NCBI GenBank assembly: GCA_030698495.1
Contig: JAUYKA010000035.1
Location: 8,778 to 72,777 of the forward strand
Direction: 5' to 3'
Source of the DNA: a bacterium
GTDB taxonomy: Bacteria; Patescibacteriota; Andersenbacteria; UBA10190
Length of the DNA: 64,000 bases
Both the position numbers and the translations under genes were made by a program. The notes under the pieces were generated by a model that ran no database searches, was not told the DNA's origin, and was given only the letters and a program-made list of their open reading frames with translations. This document shows, one piece after another, positions 1 to 31,400 of the stretch; position 1 is the stretch's first letter, and the number at the start of each line of letters is the position of its first letter.

Positions 1-201
1 CGGCAGAGATTGGCCGTGAAAGAATTCTGGTTTCTTTTCCTCGATCGCTTTCGGCACCTGGTAAGAAGCCGCTCTTTCTGCGTCCATTTTGTTCATTTCG
101 AACCAAAGGAGTGGGCCGAAGAATATTGCGCAAGGCACAAGCAAACCAAAAAAGCTAATAACCGCCAGGCTTCTAATGGCCTGTCTTTGAGTAATGGTCA
201 T
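1..201 (-). CDS. Partial CDS covering only the N-terminus, which runs off the window start. It is a putative membrane protein beginning MTITQRQAIRSLAVISFFGLLVPCAIFFGPLLW.
   Basis: ATG at 199-201 on the minus strand is preceded by an AAGGAGG Shine-Dalgarno (plus 208-213) with a 6 nt spacer. The frame stays open to the window edge and the N-terminus has a hydrophobic helix. The overlapping plus-strand ORF 10-216 has no RBS. Confidence 0.45.
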   Translation of the reverse strand, partial: MTITQRQAIRSLAVISFFGLLVPCAIFFGPLLWFEMNKMDAERAASYQVPKAIEEKKPEFFHGQSLP

Positions 202-280
202 AATAGACCTCCTTGAATGGGTTTCAGTTGGAAAGTGTACAAGACCAGTAATTACACACATATTTAGTAATTCGTCAAGA

Positions 281-308
281 TTGACAAAATCTTTCGGGCG
301 GCTAATAT
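281..308 (+). promoter_or_regulatory. sigma70-type promoter TTGACA-16nt-TAATAT
   Basis: The -35 TTGACA lies at 281-286 and the -10 TAATAT at 303-308 with a 16 nt spacer. The -10 ends only 2 nt before the GTG at 310, so GTG 310 is unlikely to be the start if this promoter is used. Confidence 0.5.
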
Positions 309-429
309 AGTGAATATCACTACGAAAAAGCTCCCATGCGGGTTTTGTCCCACAGCGGGGCTTTTTCATTTTTGCCTACTTATATACGAACCGTGCGGAT
401 TTTTTGTTTCCTATGCTAAAATCCATAAT

Positions 430-897
430 ATGATTATCGAGATTGATCAGAGCGGAAAAGTTGAGGAAACGGCAAAAGATACAGTTGTCGCTTTCGTTGA
501 TAACAGTAAGAAGAAGCTGTATCGGTCAATATTGTTACCTAAAAAGGAGAAGAGAAAATTACAGCGTTTTTTCCGAGACGTTGGGATGCCGCGCAGATAT
601 AACTATCAAGTCTTTTCTGCATTAATCTTCTTACTCATTCGCCCTTATTTACGTCGACTAGATAGAGTTATAGTTGATATTGAGTATCCTGGACAAAATA
701 CGTTGATTAGGAATCTCATTCTCGAAAAAGTACGTCCAATTTACGAGAAATTTGATCCTTCTATTATTGTATTCCAGCGAATCGGAAAAGGGTCGCCGGC
801 CCACGACCGTGCTTATTACACATATCAGAAAAAATATAAGCCCAATCAAAAAATTGGTAGTAAAGACGTATTAGGGGCTATTATAGCTCCGGAATAA
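430..897 (+). CDS. Hypothetical protein of about 155 aa (MIIEIDQSGKV...), from an AT-rich gene of about 38% GC. The ORF track extends it to a GTG at 310.
   Basis: The frame is open 310-897 and ATG 430 is in frame. No clear Shine-Dalgarno precedes either start. No recognisable family motif was found by eye. Confidence 0.5.
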   Translation: MIIEIDQSGKVEETAKDTVVAFVDNSKKKLYRSILLPKKEKRKLQRFFRDVGMPRRYNYQVFSALIFLLIRPYLRRLDRVIVDIEYPGQNTLIRNLILEKVRPIYEKFDPSIIVFQRIGKGSPAHDRAYYTYQKKYKPNQKIGSKDVLGAIIAPE

Positions 898-1215
898 AAA
901 ACCAGGCCCCGCGCTTAACTATCGAGTTTACGATTGGTCGGCGCCGCAGCCTGATTTATACTCTCATTATATTTCGGGATTCGCGAAAGTCAAGAGCAAA
1001 AAATAGGCGATAAAAAACCACCCCGCACAATGCGAGGAGGAAACGCCTATTCTAGTTAGCCCCTAGAAGACTTCACTACCAGTAGGTAGTTCCGCCATAC
1101 GGTCGGTTTTCGGCTTTTTTTGTTTATGACCATATTGTAATCAAATTATGATAGATGAGCCAGCCTAATCTCTATAGCCGCACTATTCCATTAGCGGCTT
1201 AGGTAAAAGGAATTA

Positions 1216-1224
1216 TGGTATAAT
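1216..1224 (+). promoter_or_regulatory. Extended -10 promoter element TGgTATAAT, implying a leaderless transcript for the gene starting at 1231.
   Basis: TG lies at 1216-1217 and TATAAT at 1219-1224. The ATG at 1231 lies 7 nt downstream, where the transcription start is expected, and no Shine-Dalgarno is possible. Confidence 0.45.
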
Positions 1225-1230
1225 ATATTT

Positions 1231-2445
1231 ATGTTTACCTACCCGCATCGCATAATAAGACCATTTACGCATCCCTTCACCGTTGCTACTGCCGGTTTGT
1301 ATACAATAACGATTAATGCTATCTGCCGCTCCGGCAGACAAATCAACCAGCCCGGTGGTGAAGATTTGCGAGTAGAAATTGACAGTATAGCACTGCGGGA
1401 AATACCGGCTGTCGCCCGCACACAAGAATATGATATACCCCCTGCGTGGAATGGGACTCAATTATGCGGATTGTCTAAAACTGTTGTTTTTGTATTGCGT
1501 CTTGAGACCGGTAATCATCAAATCAATTTTATACCATATCGTGGCGCAGAAATTGTGGCTGAACCGAAGATCGAATTAGTCAGTGATCCACACTCATTAT
1601 CCTTAATAATGGAACAGCAAGCCGAAGATAGTGATCGAAGGCCATGGTATACGATTTCGCTTGTTAATTTGCCGTTACAAAGACTCACCATTGATGCAAC
1701 GGCTAAATGGCACTTAGGCGATAGTGACGATATTAAAATCATTGTTGATAATGCTGTAAAGCCTAATCCTAGCTCTCTGGCAATCCTTCGTCGTGACTGG
1801 CTCATATCCGGCAGTCTTCTAAAAAAGCTTTTCAAGAATGAACGCCAGCAATTCAATTTTGAAGAAAATCTGAACCAAGGTATTCACTATATAGAACTTT
1901 GGGCGGATCGGGAACCCATAATACATAGCTTTGAGCTAGATTTAGGAGATATAGAGATTGAAGAACCGGCCCAACGCACACCGACAGTAGACGATCCAAA
2001 ATGGACAGGCAATTTTGATGATGACTCCGAGACCATCCTCCTTGCCCGTCTTATTTTCGGTGAAGCAGAGGGTGAATCTAGAGAGGCTAAAACTTGGGTC
2101 GGAGCGAGTGTATTAAACCGAGTTAGGGCACAAACATGGTGGGGCAAAACATTGCGTGAAGTAATTTTGAAGCCAGCGCAATACGATCCATTCGGACTAA
2201 CCGATGAGCGCTTTAAAACCATCATCAATCCAATGAAAAACGCTAATTCTGGCACAGTACAAGCATGGCATGAATCATACACAGTAGCGGAGGAGCTACT
2301 TTCCGGGAAAATTTCAATTCCAACTGAAGCAACTCACTTTCACGGCATCGGTATTGTTCGTGACGAATTTATCAAAAAGGTTGTGCCAAATGGACGTTTC
2401 TTACGACAAATCGACAATACATTTTTTTATTGGAGTCCCAATTAA
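1231..2445 (+). CDS. Cell-wall hydrolase with a C-terminal SleB/CwlJ-type (Hydrolase_2) domain and an N-terminal region of about 250 aa of unknown function.
   Basis: The C-terminal segment ...ILLARLIFGEAEGESREAKTWVGASVLNRV...LKPAQYDPF...ATHFHG matches conserved blocks of SleB-family hydrolases. No signal peptide is evident. Confidence 0.7.
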   Translation: MFTYPHRIIRPFTHPFTVATAGLYTITINAICRSGRQINQPGGEDLRVEIDSIALREIPAVARTQEYDIPPAWNGTQLCGLSKTVVFVLRLETGNHQINFIPYRGAEIVAEPKIELVSDPHSLSLIMEQQAEDSDRRPWYTISLVNLPLQRLTIDATAKWHLGDSDDIKIIVDNAVKPNPSSLAILRRDWLISGSLLKKLFKNERQQFNFEENLNQGIHYIELWADREPIIHSFELDLGDIEIEEPAQRTPTVDDPKWTGNFDDDSETILLARLIFGEAEGESREAKTWVGASVLNRVRAQTWWGKTLREVILKPAQYDPFGLTDERFKTIINPMKNANSGTVQAWHESYTVAEELLSGKISIPTEATHFHGIGIVRDEFIKKVVPNGRFLRQIDNTFFYWSPN

Positions 2446-2446
2446 T

Positions 2447-3007
2447 ATGAAAACCAGACTAATAATTGTACCTGTCTCGTATGTATTACTTGGCATTATT
2501 AGCTCAACACTATTTTTTTATCTAGTGAGGCCAAAAAACAACATTACTTTACCTACCATTACAACACAACCAACAAAACTGCCCGTAACCAGCAATAAAA
2601 ACCCGTACGGGGAACGTTCATTATTTGATTTTTCTCCCGATCAGAAGAATATTGCTTTTATCGAGGATGTTTTCGAAAAATACGGCCATAATTATGACCG
2701 TTATTATGCTGTCAATGTTTTTAATGTAGAAAGCAAACGGGAAAAGAGTCTTTTGATTGATACCTATAAAATATCCGGTTTTGAATGGCGTAATAATGAT
2801 ACGATACGAGTTTTCCTGGATGCCGGCACAGGCATTCGCGCTTATCGTGATATCTCGATTCAAATTTCGAAACCGCTTATTTTCAAGGACTTTGTGGCGA
2901 GCAGCCATAAGCCAGAAACGTTCTGGACACCCGACGAGCAATACCTCCAGGAGCTCCAAAGAAAACAGCTAGCCAACCAGAAATACCTAGAGCTTACGTC
3001 GCAATAA
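2447..3007 (+). CDS. Hypothetical membrane-anchored protein of 186 aa with an N-terminal TM helix, translationally coupled to the upstream hydrolase.
   Basis: The ATG at 2447 overlaps the upstream stop (TAATATG). It lies in frame within ORF-track entry 2354-3007. The N-terminus MKTRLIIVPVSYVLLGIISSTLFFYLV is hydrophobic. The gene is AT-rich, at about 36% GC. Confidence 0.6.
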   Translation: MKTRLIIVPVSYVLLGIISSTLFFYLVRPKNNITLPTITTQPTKLPVTSNKNPYGERSLFDFSPDQKNIAFIEDVFEKYGHNYDRYYAVNVFNVESKREKSLLIDTYKISGFEWRNNDTIRVFLDAGTGIRAYRDISIQISKPLIFKDFVASSHKPETFWTPDEQYLQELQRKQLANQKYLELTSQ

Positions 3008-3042
3008 CCTCCGCTAAATCATGTCAGATAATATGCACTAAA

Positions 3043-3080
3043 AGTGCTCACCGTATTTTGCGATGAGCACTTTCATTGTT
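3043..3080. terminator. Hairpin (8 bp stem, 13 nt loop) followed by a T-rich tract between convergent genes. It is a possible bidirectional terminator.
   Basis: agtgctca...tgagcact is followed by ttcattgttcttaatttta, between the stop at 3007 on the plus strand and the ftsZ stop at 3088 on the minus strand. Confidence 0.4.
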
Positions 3081-3087
3081 CTTAATT

Positions 3088-4317
3088 TTATAGCGATTGA
3101 TCTTCTGAATCGCCGTGGTTCCTAGCTTCTTTTTGTTCGCGCATCTTACGGCGGATGAACGTAGGCACTTCCAGGTCTTCGTCATTACCATCCGTTCGCG
3201 GAGTCACGACAGGGCGGCTATATGGATTTGGTTTTACTTCCGGCTGACTGCGAACCGGCTCCGACTCCGGTATAGCACCGAAACGAACCGGCTGGGTAGC
3301 CATTCCCTGGCTATAGGGAATCGCCCCGCTATAACGTTCTGTCTTACGAACAGCTTCCGGCTTATCAAAACCAGTCGCCACCACTGTAATTTTTAATTCC
3401 CCCTCTTCTACCTGGTTGTTATCAATAACCGTCCCGAATATTACTTTCGCGTTATTATCCGCGTGTTCTGTAATCACTCGCGCCGCTTCCTCCACTTCAA
3501 ACATCTTCAGATCTTCCCCCGCAGTAACATTAAAGATAATACCCTTAGCCCCATCAATCGTAATATCCAACAAAGGACTCTCAATGGCCGCCCTTGCCGC
3601 GTCCACCGCCCTATTCTCGCCAGACGCTCGGCCAATTCCCATTAACGCTGACCCAGCGTTAGACGTTATCGCTCTTATGTCCGCAAAATCAACATTCACC
3701 ATACCATGATGGACAATCAAATCTGATATGCCCTGCACCCCCTGACGCAAAACGTCATCTACCACGCGGAATGCGTCCACTAAACTTGTCTTCTTATCAA
3801 TTATCTGTAACAATCGATCGTTCGGCACCACCACTGCCGCGTCCACTCTGTCCTGCAATTCCGCCAGCGCTTCTTCCGCAATCGTCATCCGTTGCTGGCC
3901 CTCAAACGAAAAGGGACGCGTTACCACCCCCACCGTAAGAGCGCCGCTTTCTTTGGCAATCTCTGATATCACCGGACCGGCTCCGCTGCCTGTACCACCG
4001 CCAAAACCGCACGTAATAAATACCATATCCGACCCCTTCAAAACCTCGTAGATTTCCTCACGACTTTCTTCCGCCGCTTGCTGGCCAACAGAGGGATCCA
4101 TTCCTGCTCCCAGGCCCCGTGTAATAGTCTGACCGATATGAATTTTTGTCGGTGCCCCGGAATAATGCAGCGCCTGCGCGTCCGTGTTTACCGCGATAAA
4201 CTCAACCCCCTTAATTTGCGCTTCCACCATTCTGTTCAAAGCCGCGTTGCCAGAACCACCCACGCCGACAACCTTAATGTTGGCTACATTCTCTATACTT
4301 GGTTTTACTACTGGCAT
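3088..4317 (-). CDS. ftsZ: Cell division GTPase FtsZ
   Basis: The tubulin signature GGGTGSG and N-terminal VIGVGGGGNNA-like VVGVGGSGNAALNRM are present. The length is 409 aa and the C-terminal tail is typical. Confidence 0.95.
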   Translation of the reverse strand: MPVVKPSIENVANIKVVGVGGSGNAALNRMVEAQIKGVEFIAVNTDAQALHYSGAPTKIHIGQTITRGLGAGMDPSVGQQAAEESREEIYEVLKGSDMVFITCGFGGGTGSGAGPVISEIAKESGALTVGVVTRPFSFEGQQRMTIAEEALAELQDRVDAAVVVPNDRLLQIIDKKTSLVDAFRVVDDVLRQGVQGISDLIVHHGMVNVDFADIRAITSNAGSALMGIGRASGENRAVDAARAAIESPLLDITIDGAKGIIFNVTAGEDLKMFEVEEAARVITEHADNNAKVIFGTVIDNNQVEEGELKITVVATGFDKPEAVRKTERYSGAIPYSQGMATQPVRFGAIPESEPVRSQPEVKPNPYSRPVVTPRTDGNDEDLEVPTFIRRKMREQKEARNHGDSEDQSL

Positions 4318-5940: not shown

Positions 5941-6348
5941 CTAAAAATTTAACTGCTGTAATAGATGGGGAACAAACACCACTATACCGATAACCAACGC
6001 GACTAAACTTACGATCAATACCGCCCCCGCCATCATGTCCTTGGCTTTTTGTACCAACTCTCCATAATCCGGATGTACTGCGTCAGCTAAAGCCTCCATT
6101 GCCGAATTCATCATCTCCAAACTCAACACTGCCCCGGCCGCCAATAAAACGATTACTGTCTCCGTAACCCCCACCCGCAACCACCAAACCAATCCCAAAA
6201 CCACCAGCAACACTATGCTCTGCCGTCGAACATTTGCCTCGGACCACAAGCCGATGATTACTCCGCGCACCGCGTGAGTAACCGAAGCAGAAAAAGACCT
6301 GCTCTTGCCCGTACGACCGTGAAATACATTACCAAACCCTGAACGCAT
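5941..6348 (-). CDS. dgkA: Diacylglycerol/undecaprenol kinase (DgkA family)
   Basis: The EMMNSAMEALADAVHP motif is typical of prokaryotic DAGK. It is a polytopic 135 aa protein in the ybeY-dgkA arrangement. Confidence 0.8.
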   Translation of the reverse strand: MRSGFGNVFHGRTGKSRSFSASVTHAVRGVIIGLWSEANVRRQSIVLLVVLGLVWWLRVGVTETVIVLLAAGAVLSLEMMNSAMEALADAVHPDYGELVQKAKDMMAGAVLIVSLVALVIGIVVFVPHLLQQLNF

Positions 6349-6363
6349 AACAATATTTTACCA

Positions 6364-6792
6364 CTATTCTGACAGCACTGCTTTGTAGCCGCACTGTTGT
6401 AAAATATTTCTTTCCCGTTCTCGAGTCAGCTCCGCTTCCGTTAATGATCTTTCATGATCCATACCCGCCGCGTGCAAAAACGCATGTACTAACAGCCACG
6501 CCATATAATCACGCCACGACATTCCGTGCTCTTTAGCTTCTTCTTTTGCTATCTGATCACATAAAGCAACATCATGCTCACCTTCGTCATAGGAAAAAGT
6601 CAATACATTTGTCGCCCGATCCAACCCCCGATATTGCTTATTTAGCTTTCTCGCTTCTTCCTTCTTTACAACCACCACTGTTACTAAATCGTCCGTACAC
6701 CCCATCTCGCCAACCACCGCTTGCCATAAAGTGTTAGCTTCTACTAAAGTCAGCGGCATTTTTCTCCCCTTCAACAAAACCGGCACAACCAA
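6364..6792 (-). CDS. ybeY: rRNA maturation endoribonuclease YbeY
   Basis: The HxxxHxxGxxH metal site (LLVHAFLHAAGMDHE) is present. The size is about 140 aa. Confidence 0.85.
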   Translation of the reverse strand: MVVPVLLKGRKMPLTLVEANTLWQAVVGEMGCTDDLVTVVVVKKEEARKLNKQYRGLDRATNVLTFSYDEGEHDVALCDQIAKEEAKEHGMSWRDYMAWLLVHAFLHAAGMDHERSLTEAELTRERERNILQQCGYKAVLSE

Positions 6793-6798
6793 ATAACA

Positions 6799-7689
6799 TT
6801 AAAGCTTATCGCCGGGCGAAGGAATGAGCGGATTATAACCGTTCTGTATTTCCTCGCCATCTGAATAACCATCACCGTCCGTATCCGGGTTAAACGGATC
6901 GCTGCCAAACGCCCGCTCATCAGGATCGGGAAACCCGTCGTTATCCGAATCCAGTTTACCCGGACCCAAAGGATCGTACCCCACCTTCACTTCATCGCCA
7001 TCACTATATCCATCGCCATCACTATCCACTTTAGCAGGATCAGTACCATAATATTTCTCTTCCGCCGCGGTTAGCCCGTCATGATCCGCATCCAATACTT
7101 CGGCCTCGGCATCAACGGACAAAGACGGTTCAGGCGAGGTAGACACTGACGGCTCCAAAGAAACAGACGGACTTGGTGTCGCACTGGTCAAGGGTGGCGG
7201 CGTAGAAGTTGGTGTCACATTGTTAAATAATCCGCCCGCACCCGAACCGCCTCCGGCAAAAAATCTGGCCAGAATCAAACCCAGCACAACCAGCAACAAA
7301 ACCAAAATTATTACTCCCCCTAACAATACCGCCAAACGTTTATTGCGCCGCGGCGGCACCGGACGCTGAAACACTGATGGCGCCAATGCGACACCGCCAA
7401 CCGGCGTAGAACTCCCCTCCCTCTTTGCCGTCGGTACCGCCAAACCACCCGCTTGGCCTTTTCCGGAAGACATGACATTATTACTATTTACATTTTTCTG
7501 AATAAACGGATCAGGTATATCCATGCCTTCGCCTGGACGCTTTACTAACGGTTGCCGACCGACAGGCTCACCCGACATCGTAGCATTTTTCTTGTCATCC
7601 GCACGTCCGCTAAAACCGGAGGGTGTTTTTCCGTCAGAAGCTGCGGCAGATAATGGTAAATTTGTCGGCGGAAACCCCTGATTTGCCAT
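6799..7689 (-). CDS. Membrane-anchored protein with thrombospondin type-3-like calcium-binding repeats
   Basis: A single TM helix ([21 protein letters not shown]) is present. C-terminal DxDxDG-type repeats are present ([37 protein letters not shown]). Confidence 0.6.
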
Positions 7690-15303: not shown

Positions 15304-18300
15304 ATGAACACTGCTCAAGACAACTGTCAATTATTATCAACAAATCTTCAGGAAAATCTGATGCCCTTTATCGAGTATTTAAAAAACGACCTGACTGCGA
15401 ATGATAACACCGCCAAAACAGACATTCCTATACGCCATCTGCCTTTGTTTTTGGCCTACATCAACACTTTCTTTAATCGGATTTTTGCCATAGTTGACAC
15501 GGGACCGCAACGTGCCCAGAAGCTATCCATAATAACTTCTCAATGGTCATCACTTCTAAATGTCAAAAATAATTGTCAATTAATTTCCGATACCTTAAAC
15601 CAAGCTGAAACCAGCGGCGATGTTGTGTCCAGTCTCAGTCAGACTTATCACCGTTTGCTTCTCCCCCAAAACCAGGAGAAAAACATATTTATTTTACCGA
15701 TAGACAAATTAGACATAGCCATACCCGATCCCGCGCAATATCAAAACAACATTATAACCATCACCGTCGGCGAGCCAACCACTCTAAGCCAACTCACCGA
15801 AGCCCTTATTAAAACCGGCTACCATCGTTATCGCGAACAACTGTCCGGCCCCGGTCTGCAAATCATAGGGGAACAGATGCATATCAAACACCCCCTTCTA
15901 ACTGGCTACTATGCCATAACCTTTTACGGCTCGTCTATTGAAAAGATAGTTCACCACCACGCCCGACGCGCTATCCGCCAACACCGCCTTAATATACCAC
16001 CTGCTTCTTTTTCCCAATCCCGTCAAAACATAACATCAATTTTATCCTCCTTTTTATTAATTCGGCCCGCGCACTCACCCGCGCCAAACCACACCAAAAA
16101 CATTATCTATAACGCGATCGGTGCCCATCGGCTTTTTCCTTTTCAACAACCTTCAAATCCGATGAAAGTCCTGTCTTCACCAAACAACTTTCTTCTTTAT
16201 ACTAATCATGACCGCGTTGCCAACTTTCTCAAAAATAATCGTTTATCGGTTAAATTATGCTCCTCTCCATTGGCAACCAACAATTCAAGTCTGGTCGGTA
16301 ACAACCTGGCCGTAGTTTGTGAACAAACACTTTTTCCTTCTACAGACAAGCAAAAAAACGCACCCCTATCTTATCAACAAGGGCTGGCTCTTATCAGCGA
16401 CTTGCGCGTCGGCCGGCCGGCCGTGCACAGCGACCATGGCATCGGCATATATGAAGGACTGCAGACAAGAACTATCAGCCATCAAACTCGCGAGTATCTG
16501 GTTTTGCGTTACGCGCAGGGCGACAGTCTATCCGTACCGGTCGAATACGCCCATAAAGTTACCGGCTATCTAGGAGACACCACCCCCGTCCTCAACCGCC
16601 TTGGCGGCAACTTGTGGTTTAAAACCAAAAAAAGCGCCCAACATGATGCCGCCAAGTTTGCTCGCGAACTCCTCGACCTCGCCGCCCGCCGGTCACAATC
16701 GACAGCCAATCAATATATTATTGACTCCGAATTGGAAAAAAAATTAGCCGACAGTTTTCCCTATAAACTTACTCCCGACCAATTACGCGCTTGGCTTGAT
16801 ATTCAAGACGATCTCGTCTCACCGCGTCATCTGGATCGCTTAATTGTCGGCGATGTTGGCTTCGGCAAAACGGAACTGGCGCTGCGTACTGCCCGCCACG
16901 CCGTTAACAACAATAAACAAGTCGCCATCCTCGCCCCCACTACTTTACTCGTCCAACAACACGTCGATAATTTCCACCAACGCCTGGCCGATATCGCTGA
17001 TCAAATAGGAGTTTTATCCCGTTTTTCATCCCCTTCCCAACAAACCGCAACCAAAAGACAAATTACTGCGGGCAGTTTAAAAATAATTATCGGCACCCAC
17101 GCCCTATTGAGCCCATCAATTGACTGGCAAAATCTTGGCCTCGTTATTATCGATGAAGAACAACGCTTCGGTGTTAAACAAAAAGAACACTTTAAGAAAA
17201 TCCGCGCCCATTTAGATGTACTGGCTCTTACCGCCACCCCTATCCCCCGCACCCTCTCCATGGCGCTCACCGGATTAAAGCAGTTATCCGTTATCAGCAC
17301 CCCTCCGGCCGGACGGCGCAGTATCAAATCTTTTGTCTGCCCACTCAATGACCAAGACTTCGCCCGCGCTCTTAACACCGAGCTTGTCCGTCACGGCCAA
17401 ATATATATTATCGCGCCCAAAATCCGTCAGCTTCACGCGCTGGCACATCAAGTCAATCAACTAGCGCCCCAAGCCAAGCTCGCGATTGCACATGGACGCA
17501 TGCCGGCCAAACAATTATCTGATGTCATGTCCCGATTCGATAACCAAGACATCGATGTTTTGGTGAGCTCATCTATTATTGAAAACGGACTTGATCTACC
17601 CCATGCCAACACCATCATCATCGTTAATGCCACTCATTTCGGTCTAGCCGATCTCTATCAGCTACGTGGACGCGTCGGACGACGCCAGCGCCAAGGTTAT
17701 GCCTACTTTTTTTATGATCAACATAAACTATCTGAACAACAACGCCGCCGGCTCACTGCCCTTATAGAAGCCTCGCGCCTGGGCTCCGGCTGGTCGCTCG
17801 CCCAAAAAGACTTGGAAATTCGCGGGGCTGGCAGTCTGCTTGGCGCCGAACAAAGCGGCACCGTCAACGCCGTCGGCATCCAATTATATCTTGATTTAAT
17901 CAAACAAGCGGCTGACCGGATGGAAGATAATTTCATTCCCCGCCGCGACGTTGATATCCTTCTGCCTTTACCGGCATTTATTCCGCCTCCTTACGTTGCA
18001 GACCCAGCCCAGCGCGCCCTCGTTTATCAAAAAATGTCCCGTGCCGACAGTCCCAAAAATCTCGAATTGGAACTATCGCGTTTAATAGAGCAATATGGTC
18101 CTCTGCCGCCAGAAGTCAACAACCTGCGTCTGGTCATCCTGCTCCAACATGCCGCTTCCAAAGCCGGCATCTCCCGCCTGGAAAGTACCGTTATCACACC
18201 ACCCGACGAAGACCCTTACACTAAGATATTTATAACCACCGCTAGTCCACCGGCTGTCCTGCGTAAAATCGGCGGTTTGGGCAATTGGCAGGTAATCGAA

Positions 18301-18387
18301 AACAAATTAGTGTTAGTCTTAGATGCTGTCACCCCAAAATTCATCTCACAGCTCATCGCTAAACTACTCAATAAACAATTAACCTAA
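15304..18387 (+). CDS. mfd: Transcription-repair coupling factor Mfd. It has a shortened N-terminus of 1027 aa.
   Basis: A CarD/TRCF RNAP-interacting domain (RPAVHSDHGIGIYEGL...) is present. Superfamily-2 helicase motifs (GDVGFGKTE, DEEQRFGV) are present. A TRG-like region and a C-terminal D7-like domain are present. Confidence 0.85.
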   Translation: MNTAQDNCQLLSTNLQENLMPFIEYLKNDLTANDNTAKTDIPIRHLPLFLAYINTFFNRIFAIVDTGPQRAQKLSIITSQWSSLLNVKNNCQLISDTLNQAETSGDVVSSLSQTYHRLLLPQNQEKNIFILPIDKLDIAIPDPAQYQNNIITITVGEPTTLSQLTEALIKTGYHRYREQLSGPGLQIIGEQMHIKHPLLTGYYAITFYGSSIEKIVHHHARRAIRQHRLNIPPASFSQSRQNITSILSSFLLIRPAHSPAPNHTKNIIYNAIGAHRLFPFQQPSNPMKVLSSPNNFLLYTNHDRVANFLKNNRLSVKLCSSPLATNNSSLVGNNLAVVCEQTLFPSTDKQKNAPLSYQQGLALISDLRVGRPAVHSDHGIGIYEGLQTRTISHQTREYLVLRYAQGDSLSVPVEYAHKVTGYLGDTTPVLNRLGGNLWFKTKKSAQHDAAKFARELLDLAARRSQSTANQYIIDSELEKKLADSFPYKLTPDQLRAWLDIQDDLVSPRHLDRLIVGDVGFGKTELALRTARHAVNNNKQVAILAPTTLLVQQHVDNFHQRLADIADQIGVLSRFSSPSQQTATKRQITAGSLKIIIGTHALLSPSIDWQNLGLVIIDEEQRFGVKQKEHFKKIRAHLDVLALTATPIPRTLSMALTGLKQLSVISTPPAGRRSIKSFVCPLNDQDFARALNTELVRHGQIYIIAPKIRQLHALAHQVNQLAPQAKLAIAHGRMPAKQLSDVMSRFDNQDIDVLVSSSIIENGLDLPHANTIIIVNATHFGLADLYQLRGRVGRRQRQGYAYFFYDQHKLSEQQRRRLTALIEASRLGSGWSLAQKDLEIRGAGSLLGAEQSGTVNAVGIQLYLDLIKQAADRMEDNFIPRRDVDILLPLPAFIPPPYVADPAQRALVYQKMSRADSPKNLELELSRLIEQYGPLPPEVNNLRLVILLQHAASKAGISRLESTVITPPDEDPYTKIFITTASPPAVLRKIGGLGNWQVIENKLVLVLDAVTPKFISQLIAKLLNKQLT

Positions 18388-18454
18388 CAAAAAATTATTT
18401 TGTAATTTTGGATTGTCATTTTGATTTTTGCATTTTAAATTTTGAATTAACGAA

Positions 18455-19339
18455 ATGTCCGAAATCCACCACATAACCGAGAACAGCGACCTCTACCCGC
18501 CCCTCCTGCGCGAAATTCATCATCCGCCCGTCGAACTTTTCATCCGCGGCAATATACACCTTCTGCAACACCCTCACCTACTCGCCGTTGTCGGCAGCCG
18601 CCGCGCTTCCACTTACGGCAAACAGTGCGTGACCCAACTCCTCCCGCCCGCGGTACTGGCGGGAGCCGTTCCCGTTTCCGGCCTTGCTTATGGCATCGAC
18701 TCTCTGGCGCATCGTACAGCCGTTGATTTACAACTGCCCACTATTGCCGTACTGGGTTCCGGCATTGACGACGCCTCTATATACCCTCGTATCAATATTG
18801 CCTTGGCACATAAAATTATTTCTTTCGGCGGAGCGCTAATCTCCGAATATCCGCCCGGCACCCCCGCTTATCCATACAACTTCCCCGCGCGCAACCGCAT
18901 CATTTCCGGCCTGTGCCAAGCCACTATTATCGTTCAGGCCGCCCGGCGTTCCGGCTCGCTAGTCACCGCCCGTCTGGCGCTGGAAGCAAACCGGGACGTA
19001 GCCATAATCCCCGGCCCTATCAATGATCCCAGAAATGCCGGCACCAACGAGCTTCTTCTGCACGGTGCCATTCCCATTATCAGCCCCGAACAAGTCGCGG
19101 ATCTGGTCGGACTTACTTTACCCGCAAACAACGCCGCTCCCGAACAAATATCACTCACCGCCACCCAGCAAAAAATTATGGACATCCTTTCCGATAAACC
19201 GCTACATCTTGATACGATTACCGAACGCAGTCAGCTTCCTTCTCCAACCATCGCCGCCATTATTACCGAACTGGAACTTTTTGATTTAATCCAACACGCC
19301 GGCGGACAGACATACCTAAAAATCAAACAAACAACTTGA
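18455..19339 (+). CDS. dprA: DNA processing protein DprA (Smf)
   Basis: Rossmann-like DprA core (LAVVGSRRASTYG, GLAYGIDSLAH, ARNRIISGL) with a C-terminal winged-helix region. Confidence 0.85.
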   Translation: MSEIHHITENSDLYPPLLREIHHPPVELFIRGNIHLLQHPHLLAVVGSRRASTYGKQCVTQLLPPAVLAGAVPVSGLAYGIDSLAHRTAVDLQLPTIAVLGSGIDDASIYPRINIALAHKIISFGGALISEYPPGTPAYPYNFPARNRIISGLCQATIIVQAARRSGSLVTARLALEANRDVAIIPGPINDPRNAGTNELLLHGAIPIISPEQVADLVGLTLPANNAAPEQISLTATQQKIMDILSDKPLHLDTITERSQLPSPTIAAIITELELFDLIQHAGGQTYLKIKQTT

Positions 19340-19429
19340 CATACCAGCAATGTTTCGCTTTACTCCCACTAATGACTTATTATTACCGAATAGCCAACGG
19401 CTCATTAAATTAACTTAAATTATCTTCAG

Positions 19430-21646
19430 ATGAAACTAGTCATTGTCGAATCTCCCGCCAAAGCTAAAACCATTCAAAAATATCTAGGCCCCGGTTTTAA
19501 AGTCACCAGCAGTTACGGCCATGTTCGCGACCTGCCTAAAAGTAAGCTGGGTGTCGACACCGATAACGACTTTACTCCTTCTTACGTTATCCCGGTTAAA
19601 GCTCGCGCGCACGTAGCCTCCCTAAAAAAAGACGCGGCCAAAGCCGAAACTATCTACTTCGCCACTGATGAAGATCGCGAAGGAGAGGCCATTGCCTGGC
19701 ATCTGTTTGCCATTCTAAAGCCGGATCCGGCTAAAGTTTTTCGCATTACTTTTGACGAAATCACCAAGGCGGCTATAACCAAGGCTGTTGCCAATCCACG
19801 CCAGATAGATATCAATTTAGTTGACGCTCAACAGGCACGCCGTATTCTGGATCGCCTGGTCGGCTATGAGCTCTCCCCTCTGCTTTGGAGCAAAGTCCGC
19901 CGCGGTCTCTCCGCCGGTCGTGTCCAGTCGGTCGCCGTCCGTTTGATTGTTGAGCGCGAAGATGATATCAAGGCTTTCCGACCGCAAGAATACTGGTCGG
20001 TAGAAGCCAATCTCAATCATCAAGATACGGATTTTACCGCCCAGTTGTCCGAACACCAAAAAAAGAAAATCGGCAAATACGACGTCAAAGACAAAACAGC
20101 AGCGGAGAACATCAAGCGCGACGTTTCCGGTGTAACTTACACCGTCTCGGACATCCAGACCAAGGATCGCCGCCGCACCCCGCCGCCTCCATTTACCACC
20201 AGCACTCTGCAGCAAGCGGCTGTCAACCGCCTCGGTTTCTCCAGTAAAAAAACCATGATGCTGGCCCAGCAGCTCTACGAAGGCGTGGAATTGGGAGACG
20301 AAGGATCAACCGGTCTCATAACTTACATGCGCACCGACTCCGTTCACTTGGCTAATGAAGCCTGCGCGGCCGCGCGCCAGACAATTGAAAACCTATTCGG
20401 CGCCAAATACTCCTTGCCCCAGCCCCGAGTTTACAAAACTAAATCCCGCGGCGCCCAAGAAGCCCATGAGGCCATCCGTCCCACCGATCCGGCACACACC
20501 CCCGAAGCCCTCGCTCCATTTTTATCAAATGATCAATTACGTTTATACCGGTTGATTTGGCAGCGCCTGCTGGCCTCGCAAATGGCGGAAGCGATTCTGC
20601 AAAACACTACCGCCCTCATCACCGCCGGCGCCTACACCTTCAAAACCGTCGGCAGTATTGTCGTATTCGATGGCTACGTCAAAGTACTCGGTGCCAAAGC
20701 CGCCTTCAAAGAAAACATTTTACCCGCCCTAAAAGTTGGCGACACCCCAAGCTTGGAGAAAATTTCTTTGGAACAGCACTTCACTCAACCCCCGGCGCGT
20801 TATTCCGAAGCCACGCTAGTTAAAGCTTTGGAAGAACACGGCATTGGCCGTCCCTCCACTTACGCTCCCACCATCGACACTATTCAGCGCCGTGAATACG
20901 TTATTAAACAGGAAGATAAAAAATTCACCCCCACCGAGATAGGTGTCATCGTCACCAATCTGCTCAAAGAACATTTCCCCGATATAGTCGACTTGCAATT
21001 TACTGCCAACATGGAATCCGACCTGGATAAAATAGCTACTGGCGACAAACAATGGCAGCCGATAATCAAAGATTTTTATAACCCCTTCCACGCTAATCTC
21101 GCCAAAAAACAAACCGAGATCAGCAAACAGGAATTAATGCAGGAATCAACCGGCGAAACTTGTCCCAAATGCGGCCACGAGCTGGTAATCAAACTGGGGA
21201 GGTTTGGCAAATTCAAAGCTTGCAGTAATTATCCCGAGTGCAAGTTTACTGAATCCGTCGGCGAAGAAAAGAAGCTCCAGGAAGAACACAGCGGTCAAAC
21301 TTGTCCCCAATGTGGTAAAGAGCTAATCGTTAAGAGAGGACGTTTCGGCCCATTCTTGGGCTGCTCCGGCTACCCTGACTGTAAATTCATTCAGCCAATA
21401 GAAAAGAAAACCGGCGTCACCTGCCCCGCTTGTGGCCAAGGAGACATTGTCGAGAAAAAATCCCGCCGCGGTAAATTATTCTACGCTTGCAATCGCTATC
21501 CTGATTGTAAAAATGCCTACTGGAGTAAACCCACCGGCGAGAAATGCCCCAAGTGCGGCAGCCTCCTGGTCTACGGCGCCAAAAATACCGCTCGCTGTTC
21601 CAGCAAAGAATGTGACTTCAGCCAACAATTAGTAGCAAGTAGTTAG
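19430..21646 (+). CDS. topA: DNA topoisomerase I with four C-terminal C4 zinc ribbons
   Basis: The TOPRIM N-terminus (MKLVIVESPAKAKTI, DEDREGE) is present. The active-site region is present. Four CxxC...CxxC modules lie at the C-terminus. Confidence 0.95.
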   Translation: MKLVIVESPAKAKTIQKYLGPGFKVTSSYGHVRDLPKSKLGVDTDNDFTPSYVIPVKARAHVASLKKDAAKAETIYFATDEDREGEAIAWHLFAILKPDPAKVFRITFDEITKAAITKAVANPRQIDINLVDAQQARRILDRLVGYELSPLLWSKVRRGLSAGRVQSVAVRLIVEREDDIKAFRPQEYWSVEANLNHQDTDFTAQLSEHQKKKIGKYDVKDKTAAENIKRDVSGVTYTVSDIQTKDRRRTPPPPFTTSTLQQAAVNRLGFSSKKTMMLAQQLYEGVELGDEGSTGLITYMRTDSVHLANEACAAARQTIENLFGAKYSLPQPRVYKTKSRGAQEAHEAIRPTDPAHTPEALAPFLSNDQLRLYRLIWQRLLASQMAEAILQNTTALITAGAYTFKTVGSIVVFDGYVKVLGAKAAFKENILPALKVGDTPSLEKISLEQHFTQPPARYSEATLVKALEEHGIGRPSTYAPTIDTIQRREYVIKQEDKKFTPTEIGVIVTNLLKEHFPDIVDLQFTANMESDLDKIATGDKQWQPIIKDFYNPFHANLAKKQTEISKQELMQESTGETCPKCGHELVIKLGRFGKFKACSNYPECKFTESVGEEKKLQEEHSGQTCPQCGKELIVKRGRFGPFLGCSGYPDCKFIQPIEKKTGVTCPACGQGDIVEKKSRRGKLFYACNRYPDCKNAYWSKPTGEKCPKCGSLLVYGAKNTARCSSKECDFSQQLVASS

Positions 21647-28317: not shown

Positions 28318-28436
28318 GTATTTAGTATTTAGTATTCCGTATATAGTATATTACAAAAATGTTGTCCACAAGAGTTATGACAAAAAAATCAACGATGCTA
28401 AATACTATATACAAAATACGAAATACTAAATACTAG
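28318..28436. repeat. Large inverted repeat with about 35 bp arms built from TATTTAG heptamers and a 44 nt spacer
   Basis: gtatttagtatttagtattccgtatatagtatatt pairs with agtatttagtatttcgtattttgtatatagtatttagc (the reverse complement of 28397-28436). It lies between the FG-GAP protein stop and the nucleotidyltransferase start. Confidence 0.7.
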
Positions 28437-31400
28437 ACCGTCGCCGCCCTAGCCGCCGCCAGCCCGCCGGACTGCGGTGTCACCGGCATTAAATCGGCTG
28501 TCATTTGCACCGTTGTGTCATGTTCAGACTTCATTTGCACATTCTCCTTGGCAAAATTCGCATAGCCCGGCTTTGTCACCGTAATCATATAAGATCCCGC
28601 CGGCGGCAGGGCAAAAAACTTACCCTGATTGTTCGTCACTCGTGTCATCACCAGCCGCTTAGTCTTCTGATTGAACAGTCGTACGACCGCCAAATCCAGC
28701 GGTATATGGGTAATGGCATCCCTCACCTGGCCGTAAGCCGGACGCATCCTCACCTCCAAAGCAATCTTAACAATTACCAATAGTATATACAGACCTTCAA
28801 TCACCAGATACAGCCAATTGAGCGCCAAGAACACCAACGCTGTATTTAACAAAGCTCCCGCTAAAAACAACGGCCACGACAACAACCGTCCCAATCGCTG
28901 GACCGTCTGCCAAATATGGAGAACACTCACCCGCACCGACGTTACTTCCGCCGCTGTCGGTTTCATTGGTATCACAATAGACAGTGGCTGATTAGCGTCT
29001 TTTACCGTTAATTTTCCGCCGGTATAAACAATATTTTCCGCCGGCGCCAACGACCGACCCGCCGGCGCGAATGTAAACCCTTCTGCCTTTACTCCGATTG
29101 TGTACTGACCAACCGGAAAGAAAGTACTAAACGCACCTTGAGCATTTGTTCTCTCTGTTGCCCTTAATTTACCGGTCGCGTCGTAAACCAACACAGAAAC
29201 GCCGGCCATCGGCTCATTAGTCCGATAATGCACCACCTTACCTTGAGGTTGCATCCTGCCCGTAGCCAAACTGACAGAGTCATCTTTTTTATTACGTCTC
29301 TGATTTATAGCCTGTACTAACCTTTCCGCTAATAAGATGGCCATTGAGCCCAGAGTCAAAAACAGTAAAAACAAATCGGCCGGTTTCAGTATATTGCGAA
29401 TCAGCGCCGACTCCTCTTTAACCGGCTGCGGCGGAGGCGTTTCTTGCTTTACAATATTAAAGTCCACCGTCTCTTCAGTAGGCAAGCTCCTGGTTGCGAC
29501 AGTTACTGTATCCGACGCAGACGCACCGTTCAAATCACGCGCCGTCAAAACAAAAATATATGTTTCGTTTTCATCTCCCGCCGAAAACGAAGCGGTGGCT
29601 GTCCTGTCCGACATTAACTTTACTGCCGGTCCGCTTAACTGACGCCAGCTGAAGTTAAGCGTACTGGTATCGCCCGGATCCGGATCGAAAGACGCTGTAC
29701 CGTCCAAAATTACCAGTGCCCTAGGGTTAACCACCTGGTCCGGACCGGCATCAACTGCCGGCGGTCGATTGTTTTTTAACACTGGCGCTAAATCCGGCGC
29801 CGCCGGTTTCGGAGAAACAGCCGGAGTCGGTGTTATGGAAGGCAATCCGGTCACTTGTGCCGACGTTGCCGGCGTCGGACTGGGAGTCGGGGTTGCCCCG
29901 GACAACGGCGTTGCCACCGGGACTGTCGCGGTGGAACCATCCGTCTTGCCCCTCACACTGGGCCAAGCTCCGATATTGCCAAAATTATCTTCGGCAACCA
30001 GCTTAAAAGTGTAATATTTATCGGCTGCCAAGCTGGTAATAGTTGTTGTTGTCGCCTCTGTATCATCGAGATCGCTATCGTCATTAACGTCCCAAACATC
30101 CGAACGCAATTCCAGCACCGCGGTGTTATCCGTACCGTAATACACCTTATAAACGAAAGTGTTACTGTCGGTAGCCCTATTCCAGCTCAACACCGCTTTC
30201 TCTGGATCAATACTAACCAGTCGCAGTGCTCCTGCGCCAGTAGGCGGCGCGTTATCCACCCGAAAACCAGAACTGACCGCGGCTAACCCTACATCTCTAT
30301 CATCACGAGGAATAATTCTTAAATATACCTTGGCCGTATCGCCACTTATCGGTCCGCCTGTATTTTCCGTTGATTTCGTATCCCAAGTAAACGTCAGCTT
30401 CACACTGTCGTTTTGATCGGTATCGATATGATCCACCGTTCCTACCTGATAACCATTTTTATTTACCAAATCCACACTGCCGTTATCCGCGGTAACTTTA
30501 GTCAGCCACGGTTTATACCAATGTTGGCCGTCAACAGAATATTGAACCCTAATCCGCGTCGGATCGTCATCGCCATCGGAAATTTCGCTGGTGAATTGCA
30601 CCGCCCCGCTACCGGTAGTGCTTTGCACTATTTCCCCCGGAGCCATCGCGCTAGGCTTGGTACGCAATCTTTCGTAAGCGTAAACAATGCCGCGCTGTAA
30701 ATCCGCTGTCACTATGTCACTGTCTCCGTCGCCGTCCAAATCGGCCGCCGCCACGCCATACACGCTCTGCAAATTTGTCGCGATTGTCTGTTGAGATTTA
30801 AACTGTCCCGTCCCATCGTTTTCGTACCAATAAACGCTATTCTTATCCTGATCCGCCACTAATAAGTCCAAGTTACCATCGCCGTTCAAATCAACCGTCG
30901 CCACCGTTTTCGCGTCAATACTGTTAGCCACCACCATGCGCCCATAACGAGTATAACTTGATTCCGTCGGTCCCGACTTATATAATACCAACTCATCCAC
31001 GTTATCATCGGCCGTAGCAATCCACGTACTGCCATTTTCCGGATCGCCCACGACAATATGCGTCCGATTCGCATTGCTATCGTCAACATCCACTCTAGTC
31101 CAAGTCGCCCCGTCCGACGTATCCCAGCGCTGTAAGCCGTCATCACCACCGGTAACAATATCCTTATAGCCGTTATGGTTCAAATCACCTATCGCCACCG
31201 CCGTTACTTTACTATCAGCATTTAAAACCGTTGCCGAAAACGTCCCGCTGCCGTTATTGATCCATGTGCGCAACACAAAAGGACCGCTCAAGTCCCCGCT
31301 ACTGCCGGAAGTGATAATATCAATCGCGCCATCACCGTTTATGTCCCCCGCCGCGGCCACCGCGTCCCGCCCGGTCGCCCCACCCAAAGACTGGGACGAA

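Follow-up and report, generated by a model that had tools for sequence, protein, structure and literature searches.

The window, the whole 64,000-nt stretch of DNA that was analyzed, belongs to a Ca. Andersenbacteria (Patescibacteria) metagenome-assembled genome (MAG) and contains a low-GC island (202..3007, plus strand) with three intact plus-strand genes. The island has a GC content of 0.411, compared with 0.491 ± 0.022 across all equally long segments (among the lowest 4 of 612), and a GC skew of -0.01, against -0.252 ± 0.053. Both flanks are compositionally normal, and the 7 kb upstream of the window (record L001) again has GC values of 47–52% and skew values between -0.16 and -0.39, which limits the island to approximately 3 kb. 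An earlier note on this DNA had described the segment as AT-rich, and that description holds (GC 41% versus 49%, skew of about 0 versus -0.25). On the left the island borders a minus-strand membrane-protein gene with its start codon at 199-201, and on the right the convergent ftsZ. Between gene 3 and ftsZ, at the island end, lies an inverted repeat (3036..3078) with 18-nt arms that are 83% complementary in the repeat search, likely a bidirectional terminator, with a terminator-like site also listed at 3047-3035. The same search found no flanking or att-like repeats around the island.

Gene 1 (430..897, plus strand) encodes a 155-aa member of an uncharacterized family of approximately 150-aa proteins, for which we found 706 cluster representatives at E ≤ 1e-3. 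The N-termini of these representatives align with the ATG at 430, which confirms this codon, and not the GTG at 310, as the start. The family alignment has invariant D6, K41, F62, D83 and E85, and gene 1 has no match in Pfam, NCBIfam, PHROGs, PADLOC or the PDB. Further upstream, a sigma-70-like site TTGACA-16-TAATAT (281..308, plus strand) matches the consensus at 10/12 positions. With 9 promoter-like sites observed in the region and 7.8 expected, this site is unexceptional and is not significant alone. Between it and gene 1 is a symmetric hairpin (324..372), its 11-bp stem having an A-run on one side and a U-run on the other, which looks like a bidirectional terminator or attenuator; the sequence 309-429 folds with a minimum free energy of -33.2 kcal/mol (z = -2.95), and a terminator-like site is also listed at 347-361. 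The promoter that was earlier said to drive gene 1 is therefore present but does not straightforwardly drive it, because the terminator-like hairpin intervenes. An extended -10-like box, TGcTAAAAT (414..422, plus strand), lies 7 nt before the gene 1 ATG. The 333-nt spacer between genes 1 and 2 (898..1230) is structured (fold z = -3.06), with terminator-like hairpins on both strands and the region's best minus-strand promoter-like site (993-966), and has no match in Rfam.

Gene 2 (1231..2445, plus strand) encodes a 404-aa predicted lytic transglycosylase, with 256 relatives that come from Patescibacteria lineages where the source names them, some MAG records being labeled otherwise. Its N-terminal module (1231..1941, plus strand) consists of two jelly-roll/CBM-like beta-sandwiches (residues 1-116 and 122-237), and no recognizable Pfam family was found in residues 1-250. 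The SleB-type catalytic domain (2008..2442, plus strand) matches Pfam PF07486 (Hydrolase_2) over residues 281-400 and the full profile (1-100) with an E-value of 3.3e-10 and 40.9 bits, above the gathering cut-off of 27, and the AF2 model (pLDDT 93.3) shows the SleB catalytic-domain fold. E278 (codon at 2062-2064) is invariant across 41 aligned sequences and pairs with the Glu of the SleB YGE motif (MANAVYGESRGE), which we take, from SleB structures, to be the catalytic residue; by this alignment the catalytic Glu is intact. Residues of the N-domain are invariant as well. A signal peptide or hydrophobic N-terminal segment is found in 0/41 homologs, no 19-residue stretch within the first 70 residues exceeding a hydropathy of 1.41 in 41/41, and the window copy has no hydrophobic N-terminal segment either. 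The C-terminal SleB hydrolase without a signal peptide, which the earlier note had read from the window copy, is thus seen across the family, and gene 2 is predicted to be a folded SleB-type lytic transglycosylase. It was rejected as the spore cortex-lytic SleB proper, given a score of 29.4 bits against the NCBIfam SleB equivalog TIGR02869 (cut-off 236.5; match limited to residues 265-320), no signal peptide and an N-domain of beta-sandwiches instead of PG_binding_1.

Gene 2 starts without an SD-like motif, at an ATG (1231) that follows an extended -10 box, TGgTATAAT (1216..1224, plus strand), after a 6-nt spacer. A -10-like box is found 4–10 nt before the start in 28/74 gene 2 homologs, mostly at exactly 6 nt, and an SD-like motif in just 2/74. 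Layout and homolog comparison therefore support a leaderless gene 2 mRNA, as had been claimed, but the arrangement is not special to this gene because it is common across the genome: 13/49 genes in the window have it, compared with 4.75% of random ATGs. By these counts, leaderless layout recurs throughout the genome and within the gene 2 family.

Gene 3 (2447..3007, plus strand), the conserved partner of gene 2, encodes a predicted type II (N-in/C-out) membrane protein. The earlier description of a 186-aa protein with a single N-terminal transmembrane (TM) helix proved accurate: a short, basic tail precedes one helix at residues 4-26 (2456..2524, plus strand; Kyte–Doolittle hydropathy 2.22). 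The ectodomain core (residues 57-137; 2615..2857, plus strand) has seven strands forming approximately two PD40/TolB-type propeller blades; the model has a mean pLDDT of 72.9, and its confident parts are limited to the TM helix and this core. Two propeller blades cannot close alone, and oligomerization is therefore assumed. The ectodomain of most homologs has a pair of cysteines in a CGTxC motif, which is missing from the window copy. Gene 3 has no Pfam match at E ≤ 1, no PepSY or other known regulator domain, and no holin homology in Pfam or PHROGs. The helix is a plain hydrophobic anchor and the protein is unlike known holins in sequence and size; gene 3 as a recognizable holin was hence rejected in favor of a type II protein with a conserved beta-propeller-blade ectodomain. 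Around the TM helix of 43 homologs, 147 K/R residues fall before and 75 after, with more before the helix in 32 proteins and more after it in 6. This bias, together with the natural fusions described below, points to an N-in/C-out orientation under the positive-inside rule.

The two genes meet at TAATATG, with the gene 2 stop at 2443-2445 and the gene 3 ATG at 2447. The tight coupling proposed earlier is seen here and across the family, but stop and start do not overlap in the window, where a 1-nt spacer separates them; all features lie where they had been placed, apart from small corrections of this kind. An iterated HMM search places the gene 3 family immediately after gene 2 in 54 loci and shows the two fused in 5–6 loci. 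The gap is ≤20 nt in 51/54 loci, with overlap in 32 and a median of -4, and direct tblastn with the window gene 3 gives 9e-33 to locus L002 and 3e-19 to L036. Gene 3 is hence predicted to be translationally coupled to gene 2, and with pairing, gene order and tight junction conserved across many lineages, sequence comparison makes genes 2 and 3 a conserved, previously undescribed pair. The refuting condition set in the earlier note, a known spore-cortex or housekeeping wall pathway conserved with synteny, does not apply: the pair is syntenic in relatives but is part of no such pathway.

Fused relatives (P0082, P0084, L051, L062, L073 and L076, plus the SLT-type P0024) carry both parts in one chain. 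Across 14 fused or long variants, the flank before the TM helix is the K/R-rich one in 11 and the reverse is seen in 0, a distribution from which we infer that the hydrolase is inside and the propeller outside. The N-terminal module of gene 2 is conserved while the middle is swapped, being Hydrolase_2, SH3_3+SLT or unrecognized domains, and in the SH3_3+SLT and unrecognized variants a TM helix and a C-terminal domain follow. Gene 3 evolves much faster than gene 2, with a mean column identity of 19% versus 42%; for the paralogous pairs at L069 and L081, gene 2 is 66% identical and gene 3 approximately 32% over just 41 aligned residues.

The immediate surroundings of the pair at other loci are rich in toxin–antitoxin and mobile genes. 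Among 120 immediate neighbors, eight toxin–antitoxin or mobile families account for approximately 32 matches (Fic 6, IS200-like Y1_Tnp 6, AAA_14/DUF4143 5, AbiEii 4, DUF4325 4, Polbeta 3, HepT 2, PIN 2), whereas each of these families has ≤1 member among 120 distal control genes. Between 2 and 5 divergent copies of the pair occur in 7/70 genomes. Odd composition, divergent multiple copies and such neighbors mark the pair as accessory and probably mobile, and the horizontal acquisition suggested earlier gains support from the composition and from variable flanks rich in toxin–antitoxin and transposase genes.

Our tentative interpretation, which we hold at a confidence somewhat short of even, is that genes 2 and 3 form a mobile, phage-independent two-gene wall-lytic module of Patescibacteria, in which the lysin is stored inside the cell and a membrane protein serves as its gate or tether. 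The hydrolase would stay where it is made, on the cytoplasmic side, with the propeller exposed at the cell surface, as suggested by the positive charges before the TM helix in both split gene 3 and the natural fusions. The enzyme would gain access to peptidoglycan solely when its membrane partner permits, and the partner could do so by forming an oligomeric lesion or, at a breach, by letting the enzyme go or anchoring it there. The likely outcome would be controlled self-lysis or local wall opening, with the fast-evolving surface propeller as the probable input or recognition side. Candidate purposes are altruistic lysis when phages attack, the release of cell content or DNA, and breaching of the wall at host contact.

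Such a release-gated scheme would follow, by analogy, holin/endolysin pairs, Enc34/M4Lys-type endolysins with a C-terminal TM domain, and LytA. The signal-less autolysin LytA of Streptococcus pneumoniae is likewise a cytoplasmic wall hydrolase with a wall-binding module that acts only after release, but LytA is a choline-binding-repeat amidase and no membrane partner gene is dedicated to it. The fused relatives resemble the Enc34 and M4Lys endolysins in placing a C-terminal TM segment behind a catalytic part that lacks a signal peptide (PMC8943055, PMC7143992). In E. coli, phage endolysins built this way, with the catalytic domain N-terminal and the TM domain C-terminal, bring about lysis that depends on the TM domain but on neither holin nor Sec; for M4Lys, lysis from within depends on this domain, and holin and Sec are dispensable (PMC8943055, PMC7143992). 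However, the catalytic fold differs, the phage enzymes end soon after the TM segment whereas the proteins of the pair carry an ectodomain of 130–300 aa, and the positive charges come after the TM segment in M4Lys but before it in the pair's proteins. Lysis-type pairs outside a phage life cycle are also found in type 10 secretion (ChiW/ChiX), with TcdE of C. difficile, and among tailocin and GTA lysis genes (PMC9527704, PMC6200909), but those keep recognizable holins and phage-type endolysins and adjoin their cargo, whereas the pair has no recurrent cargo gene.

A more specific version of the wall-lytic module, improbable in our estimation, is an inside-out lysis device particular to Patescibacteria. 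In it, a wall-binding lytic transglycosylase stored at the cytoplasmic face would be linked by a single TM helix to a surface propeller that diversifies rapidly and serves as a receptor, and the device would convert an external event into a local wall breach or altruistic self-lysis. The event could be wall damage, the adsorption of a phage, or contact with a cell of a host or competitor. If true, this would be a new abortive-infection or contact-triggered class in the toxin–antitoxin-rich accessory islands of ultrasmall epibionts.

The enzyme-first gene order is that of sleB-ypeB or of toxin–immunity pairs and not the usual holin-then-lysin, which speaks against a lysis module, as do the CBM-like, SH3 and SLT domains, which are typical of exported proteins, so that another export route could exist.

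Export is the basis of a different explanation, possible but doubtful, in which gene 2 exits by a non-Sec route as a wall-remodeling or host-wall-attacking enzyme and acts on the wall of its own cell or of a host bacterium, while gene 3 holds, positions or restrains it at the outer face of the membrane, as in YpeB-SleB or FtsX-PcsB/CwlO. In Bacillus, the lytic transglycosylase SleB of the spore cortex and its partner YpeB, which is anchored in the membrane, are encoded in a bicistronic operon of the same design: a wall-binding module followed by Hydrolase_2, then the gene of a protein with an N-terminal anchor and an external domain. The resemblance ends with an enzyme without a signal peptide, two CBM-like sandwiches in the place of PG_binding_1, PD40-like propeller blades in the place of the PepSY domains of YpeB (the N-terminal anchor is common to both), host organisms that do not sporulate, and natural fusions that imply an enzyme and an ectodomain on opposite sides of the membrane. 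In favor of this explanation, CBM-like, SH3_3 and SLT domains normally lie outside the cytoplasm, and the tight translational coupling suggests a stoichiometric complex. However, no export route is known for an enzyme whose homologs all lack a signal peptide, the fused parts are split by one TM helix and cannot both be outside, with the charge bias putting the hydrolase inside, and gene 3 has none of the known regulator domains. The position of the window pair beside ftsZ and ftsA would suit a role in the wall, but a member of the neighbor-gene cluster that includes the window's FtsZ lies near the pair in just 2/81 loci, and elsewhere the accessory, multi-copy pair sits among toxin–antitoxin genes and not in division or wall clusters.

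We regard it as unlikely that the pair is an antibacterial effector with its immunity protein. Gene 2 would then be a polymorphic toxin that degrades the wall, with lytic domains that can be exchanged behind a constant N-terminal module for delivery or targeting, and gene 3 would be the cognate immunity protein, guarding the producer's wall at the outer face of the membrane. In the peptidoglycan-hydrolase effectors of type VI and VII systems, which are modular, the toxin gene precedes a small gene that evolves fast and encodes a product facing the wall compartment. The pair has this layout, with swapped catalytic domains behind a conserved N-terminal module, a small and often overlapping downstream gene that diverges much faster (most clearly between L069 and L081), several divergent copies in some genomes, and an enzyme that lacks a Sec signal as specialized-secretion effectors do. 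But a fusion of toxin and immunity protein across the membrane makes little sense, the fold of the gene 3 ectodomain is unlike any known inhibitor of lysozymes or lytic transglycosylases, and no recurrent secretion-system or cargo genes were found among the neighbors at related loci. Genes 1, 2 and 3 have no defence-model match in PADLOC-DB 2.0 at E ≤ 1.

A remnant of a prophage lysis cassette, with an endolysin and a class III-like holin left in the chromosome, is very unlikely. Holin T of phage T4 combines a single TM helix with a large external domain, and the pair shares the layout of a signal-less muralytic enzyme with wall-binding domains beside a coupled gene for a small single-TM protein of this kind; by analogy the architecture would be compatible with holin function. 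SleB-type domains are also common in phage endolysins, and the island has a foreign composition. Yet no integrase, terminase, capsid or tail genes were found within 7 kb upstream, where the earlier note had proposed to look for phage or integrase genes, or 61 kb downstream (the L001 gene tables and the sampled window genes are housekeeping), no phage structural or lysis families occur among the 120 immediate neighbors at other loci, and there are no flanking repeats. The N-domain of gene 2 is absent from 50,697 phage genomes (INPHARED), in which the SleB domain alone matches gene 2 (24–37% coverage in isolate phages), and from BFVD (TM-score normalized to query ≤0.29), and a scan of 2.9 million IMG/VR viral contigs, which hinges on exact peptide patterns, gave 0 confirmed relatives; Patescibacteria phages are poorly sampled. 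Most lysis cassettes have the opposite gene order, and the multi-copy family is intact and maintained vertically or horizontally in cellular genomes of many lineages, with invariant catalytic and N-domain residues and a conserved beta-propeller ectodomain. Endolysin–holin logic, as proposed in the earlier note, is therefore a fair description of a signal-less SleB enzyme with a coupled single-pass protein, but the phage link is missing; by analogy, the pair would represent phage-lysis-type logic in the foreign-looking island of an ultrasmall bacterium.

That gene 1 works with genes 2 and 3 in a functional three-gene operon is scarcely credible: the genes share a strand and a low-GC island, but relatives of gene 1 occur in none of the 80 loci related to the pair and lie in unrelated gene contexts elsewhere, the structured spacer with its terminator-like hairpins separates gene 1 from a gene 2 that has its own -10 box, the upstream gene at L085 is AbiEii-like by eye with no match to the gene 1 profile, and both closest relatives lack a gene 1 relative. 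The three-gene module first described hence reduces to the pairing of genes 2 and 3, and gene 1 appears as an unrelated passenger within the island, separate from the pair.

A large part of bacterial diversity falls within the Patescibacteria, which live attached to other cells; how they breach walls, whether their own or those of a host, is to our knowledge poorly understood. The robust outcome here is that genes 2 and 3 of the island at 202-3007 (+) form a pair that is conserved and mobile in Patescibacteria and at times fused, with the inferred functions of a wall-binding lytic transglycosylase without a signal peptide and its surface-exposed membrane partner. The three + strand ORFs that an earlier note had read as one lysis-cassette-like module lie where it had placed them (gene 1, 430-897; gene 2, 1231-2445; gene 3, 2447-3007).

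Gene 2 has the C-terminal SleB-type domain and the missing signal peptide claimed for it: Pfam Hydrolase_2 covers residues 281-400 (40.9 bits, cut-off 27), and a hydrophobic N-terminal segment is found in none of 41 homologues. The score against the NCBIfam SleB equivalog is far under threshold (29 vs 236.5 bits). In the AlphaFold2 model (alignment of 41 sequences, mean pLDDT 93.3), beta-sandwiches at residues 1-116 and 122-237 precede a helical C-terminal domain, and the N-terminus itself forms the first strand of the fold; E278, aligned to the Glu of the SleB YGE motif, is invariant. An NCBI protein with the name 'cell wall hydrolase' is identical to the gene 2 product. The family has 256 database relatives, mostly of about 400 aa and conserved along their full length, and those with a named source are labeled as Patescibacteria lineages (Portnoy-, Magasanik-, Falkow-, Moran-, Roizmanbacteria and others). 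One locus, L051, is from Ca. Saganbacteria, and many TPA MAGs with the pair bear the titles 'uncultured Gammaproteobacteria', 'Pseudomonadales' or 'Bdellovibrionales' (loci L017, L020-L023, L029-L031, L039, L041, L043, L044, L053, L058 and L072); either these titles are wrong or the pair extends beyond Patescibacteria.

A leaderless mRNA had also been proposed for gene 2, and its layout fits one: a TGgTATAAT box at 1216-1224 (+) lies 6 nt before the ATG at 1231, with no SD-like motif. Among 74 homologues of gene 2, which come from many Patescibacteria, 28 share this geometry and only two have an SD-like motif. Within the window, a -10-like box stands 6-9 nt before the start of 13 of 49 genes, compared with 4.75% of all ATG trinucleotides, with a modal spacer of 6 nt, and an SD-like motif is found in only about 9 of 51 ORFs. 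Further starts of this type are at 6348, 9171, 39716, 43012, 52105 and 57827, all on the - strand. Judged from these patterns, the predicted leaderless layout does exist, as a general trait that gene 2 shares with the genome and the lineage.

A single-sequence search with gene 3 matched only gene 3 itself; its family was revealed by synteny and an iterated HMM over the loci of gene 2 relatives. Plain tblastn was enough to place, at about 25 loci, a gene 3 relative directly 3' of the gene 2 relative, and the iterated HMM found the family in 60 of 81, as a separate gene in 54 and fused into one ORF of 571-683 aa in 5-6. The 21 loci without a match comprise 15 with other variants of the N-domain protein and six that are truncated or divergent. 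Each of the two closest gene 2 relatives (63% and 54% identity) is directly followed by a match to the gene 3 family profile. The genes are at most 20 nt apart in 51 of the 54 loci (median gap -4) and overlap in 32, most commonly as ATGA. In the window the junction is tight, as the earlier note held, but without the overlap that it described: the stop codon at 2443-2445 is followed by 1 nt and then by the ATG at 2447. Joining of the two products by stop-codon read-through or frameshifting was considered and rejected: the reading frame of gene 3 is +1 with respect to that of gene 2, and read-through would leave the products separate.

Start calls for gene 3 differ, with NCBI giving 160 aa from an internal GTG, at the loss of the TM helix, and the Logan assembly 205 aa. 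The family alignment supports the ATG at 2447 (186 aa) as the start, and a basic tail and TM helix begin all 43 aligned partners. Lysine and arginine number 147 before and 75 after the helix in these 43 proteins, with the excess before it in 32 and after it in six. The external part of most homologues has a CGTxC pair, where the window copy reads AGTGI. Built on an alignment of database proteins from a more distant subfamily (A3), the AF2 model of gene 3 (mean pLDDT 72.9) therefore reaches good confidence at the TM helix and at residues 57-137 and nowhere else. Neither gene 3 nor any of its 42 database relatives is covered by a Pfam family.

Topology is argued from the fusions and the long variants. 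In the proteins P0082 and P0084 and at loci L051, L062, L073 and L076, a TM helix comes immediately after the hydrolase and leads on to a gene 3-type domain. Other proteins combine the double beta-sandwich N-module with SH3_3+SLT or with middle domains that match no known family, and these variants have one TM helix at residues 417-479 and then a C-terminal domain of 170-300 aa, which in one long variant (L056:627-2720) consists of FG-GAP propeller repeats. A K/R-rich flank precedes the helix in 11 of 14 fused or long variants and follows it in none. With a single helix, both protein ends cannot lie outside the membrane, and we know of no route by which an N-terminal domain of 400 residues that lacks a signal peptide could be exported; hence, the simplest reading is that the hydrolase would lie inside and the propeller, the PD40/TolB-like ectodomain of gene 3, outside. 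FG-GAP is also found in a 1151-aa surface-type protein encoded in the window at 28433-31888 (-), together with PKD and CarboxypepD_reg domains.

We tentatively favor a reading in which the hydrolase would be kept as a stored lysin on the inner side of the membrane, with the propeller displayed outside, and the membrane partner would gate or tether its route to the wall. Closest to this in logic are holin/endolysin pairs and, likewise, endolysins with a C-terminal TM domain (Enc34/M4Lys), in which that domain is needed for holin- and Sec-independent lysis by an unknown mechanism (PMC7143992, PMC8943055). In the main rival reading the enzyme would be exported and the membrane protein would regulate it in the manner of SleB-YpeB. 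The operon design fits this, and the CBM, SH3 and SLT domains, usually extracellular, would speak for it; the absent signal peptide and the natural fusions conflict with it, and we consider it rather unlikely. An effector/immunity pair is less likely, and improbable in our judgment. Less likely again, and very improbable, is a prophage remnant: PHROGs searches of the neighbors gave no structural or lysis families, isolate phage genomes have only the SleB domain in common with gene 2, BFVD holds no full-architecture match to gene 2, and an IMG/VR pattern scan gave no confirmed relative. On these results, together with the lack of an integrase or flanking repeats at the island borders, a prophage origin was dropped as the leading interpretation. 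A known defense system was likewise rejected, as no PADLOC model matches any of the three.

The literature searched holds no description of the N-terminal module, the partner family, their pairing or the predicted inside/outside split; the catalytic domain is already known. One review mentions, in general terms only, that host envelopes may be a target of Patescibacteria lytic transglycosylases. The analysis defines three families without a Pfam entry, namely the double beta-sandwich N-module, the propeller-blade membrane partner and the gene 1 family, the first two of which form a widespread, mobile and often multi-copy pair with an unusual predicted topology, the enzyme inside and a domain of receptor-like character on the outer side. 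Should lysis or wall breaching be under the control of the pair, it would be relevant to the release and uptake of DNA and nutrients, to the response to phages, and to how signal-less lysins with a C-terminal membrane segment, such as the Enc34/M4Lys phage endolysins, reach the wall. As the pair is small and self-contained, it is directly testable by heterologous expression.

Other than the pair itself, no neighbor is conserved across loci. Toxin-antitoxin and mobile families are over-represented among the 120 genes that flank it immediately (Fic 6, IS200-like Y1_Tnp 6, AAA_14/DUF4143 5, AbiEii 4, DUF4325 4, Polbeta 3, HepT 2 and PIN 2); in a control set of 120 genes, four or more genes distant, none of these families has more than one member. 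At the locus of the closest relative (L085), a partial upstream ORF resembles AbiEii when inspected by eye, and a gene for a HicA toxin is found on the downstream side. Two to five copies of the pair are present in 7 of 70 genomes, and copies within a genome are 35-71% identical in gene 2 and only 19-51% in gene 3. Directly upstream of one pair (L008:5291-7873) lies an 860-aa DnaB-type helicase with an apparent intein-like insert, judged from sequence.

The GC drop reported for this region is borne out, with 0.411 for 202-3007 against 0.491 +/- 0.022 for all equal-size windows (within the lowest 4 of 612), and GC skew is -0.01 against -0.252 +/- 0.053. Composition is normal in all downstream sequence and in the 7 kb 5' of the window, taken from a second assembly of the same region (L001), so the island spans about 3 kb and contains exactly genes 1, 2 and 3. 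It is the sole stretch of the window with a skew near zero; elsewhere the + strand skew is about -0.25 in + strand genes (15304-21646) and - strand genes alike, so it does not simply track the coding strand. No integrase, tRNA or flanking direct repeats were found at the borders, and an Rfam scan of 200-3100 matched no family, even at E<=1. Upstream (L001) lie genes for NDK, a metallo-beta-lactamase-fold protein, a dehydrogenase, glycerate kinase and ComEC and two small unknown genes, and downstream ftsZ, ftsA, dgkA and ybeY. FtsZ, TopA and DprA of the window are identical to proteins from a 'Candidatus Andersenbacteria bacterium' MAG, a placement within the Parcubacteria of the Patescibacteria group. 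A link to cell division through ftsZ/ftsA was rejected, since a member of the neighbor cluster that includes the window's FtsZ occurs close to the pair at just 2 of 81 loci. Two competence genes are close to the island, ComEC 1.3 kb upstream (L001:4643-6055) and DprA 15 kb downstream (18455-19339); competence genes have no recurrent linkage to the pair in other loci.

The three-gene module did not survive comparison: members of the gene 1 family are absent from the 80 loci with gene 2 relatives, including the records of the two closest, and a structured spacer of 333 nt (898-1230; z = -3.06) separates gene 1 from gene 2. On genomic context, gene 1 is a matter separate from the pair. It has no Pfam, NCBIfam, PHROGs or PADLOC match and no convincing one in the PDB, where a weak hit to Dbh/Pol IV (E 0.013 over 47 residues) was taken to be fortuitous. 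An exhaustive HMMER search gave 706 cluster representatives of about 150 aa, whose N-termini align with ATG 430 and thus settle the start; NCBI also annotates 155 aa. D6, K41, F62, D83 and E85 are invariant and H125 nearly so, a pattern that would fit a small nuclease-like enzyme. Elsewhere the family stands in unrelated contexts, at times as apparent tandem duplicates; at one locus (L082:3541-4456, 6655-7110) a second 151-aa gene adjoins a family member and a third lies 2 kb off, and other members are near PIN/Phd toxin-antitoxin genes.

The promoter proposed for gene 1 is present as a TTGACA-16-TAATAT site at 281-308 (+; 10/12 positions; the region contains 9 such sites where 7.8 would be expected), but a strong symmetric hairpin with a U-run (324-372; z = -2.95) intervenes before the gene, beginning within about 15 nt of the transcription start expected from that site. 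The stretch 281-372 may encode a short sRNA (about 55-60 nt), act as an attenuator before gene 1 or serve as a bidirectional terminator. A TGcTAAAAT box at 414-422 (+) lies 7 nt 5' of ATG 430. The spacer at 898-1230 has terminator-like hairpins on both strands, and the region's best promoter-like match, TTGACT-16-TATAAT at 993-966 (-; 11/12), faces the 3' end of gene 1; the spacer may give rise to an antisense or small RNA.
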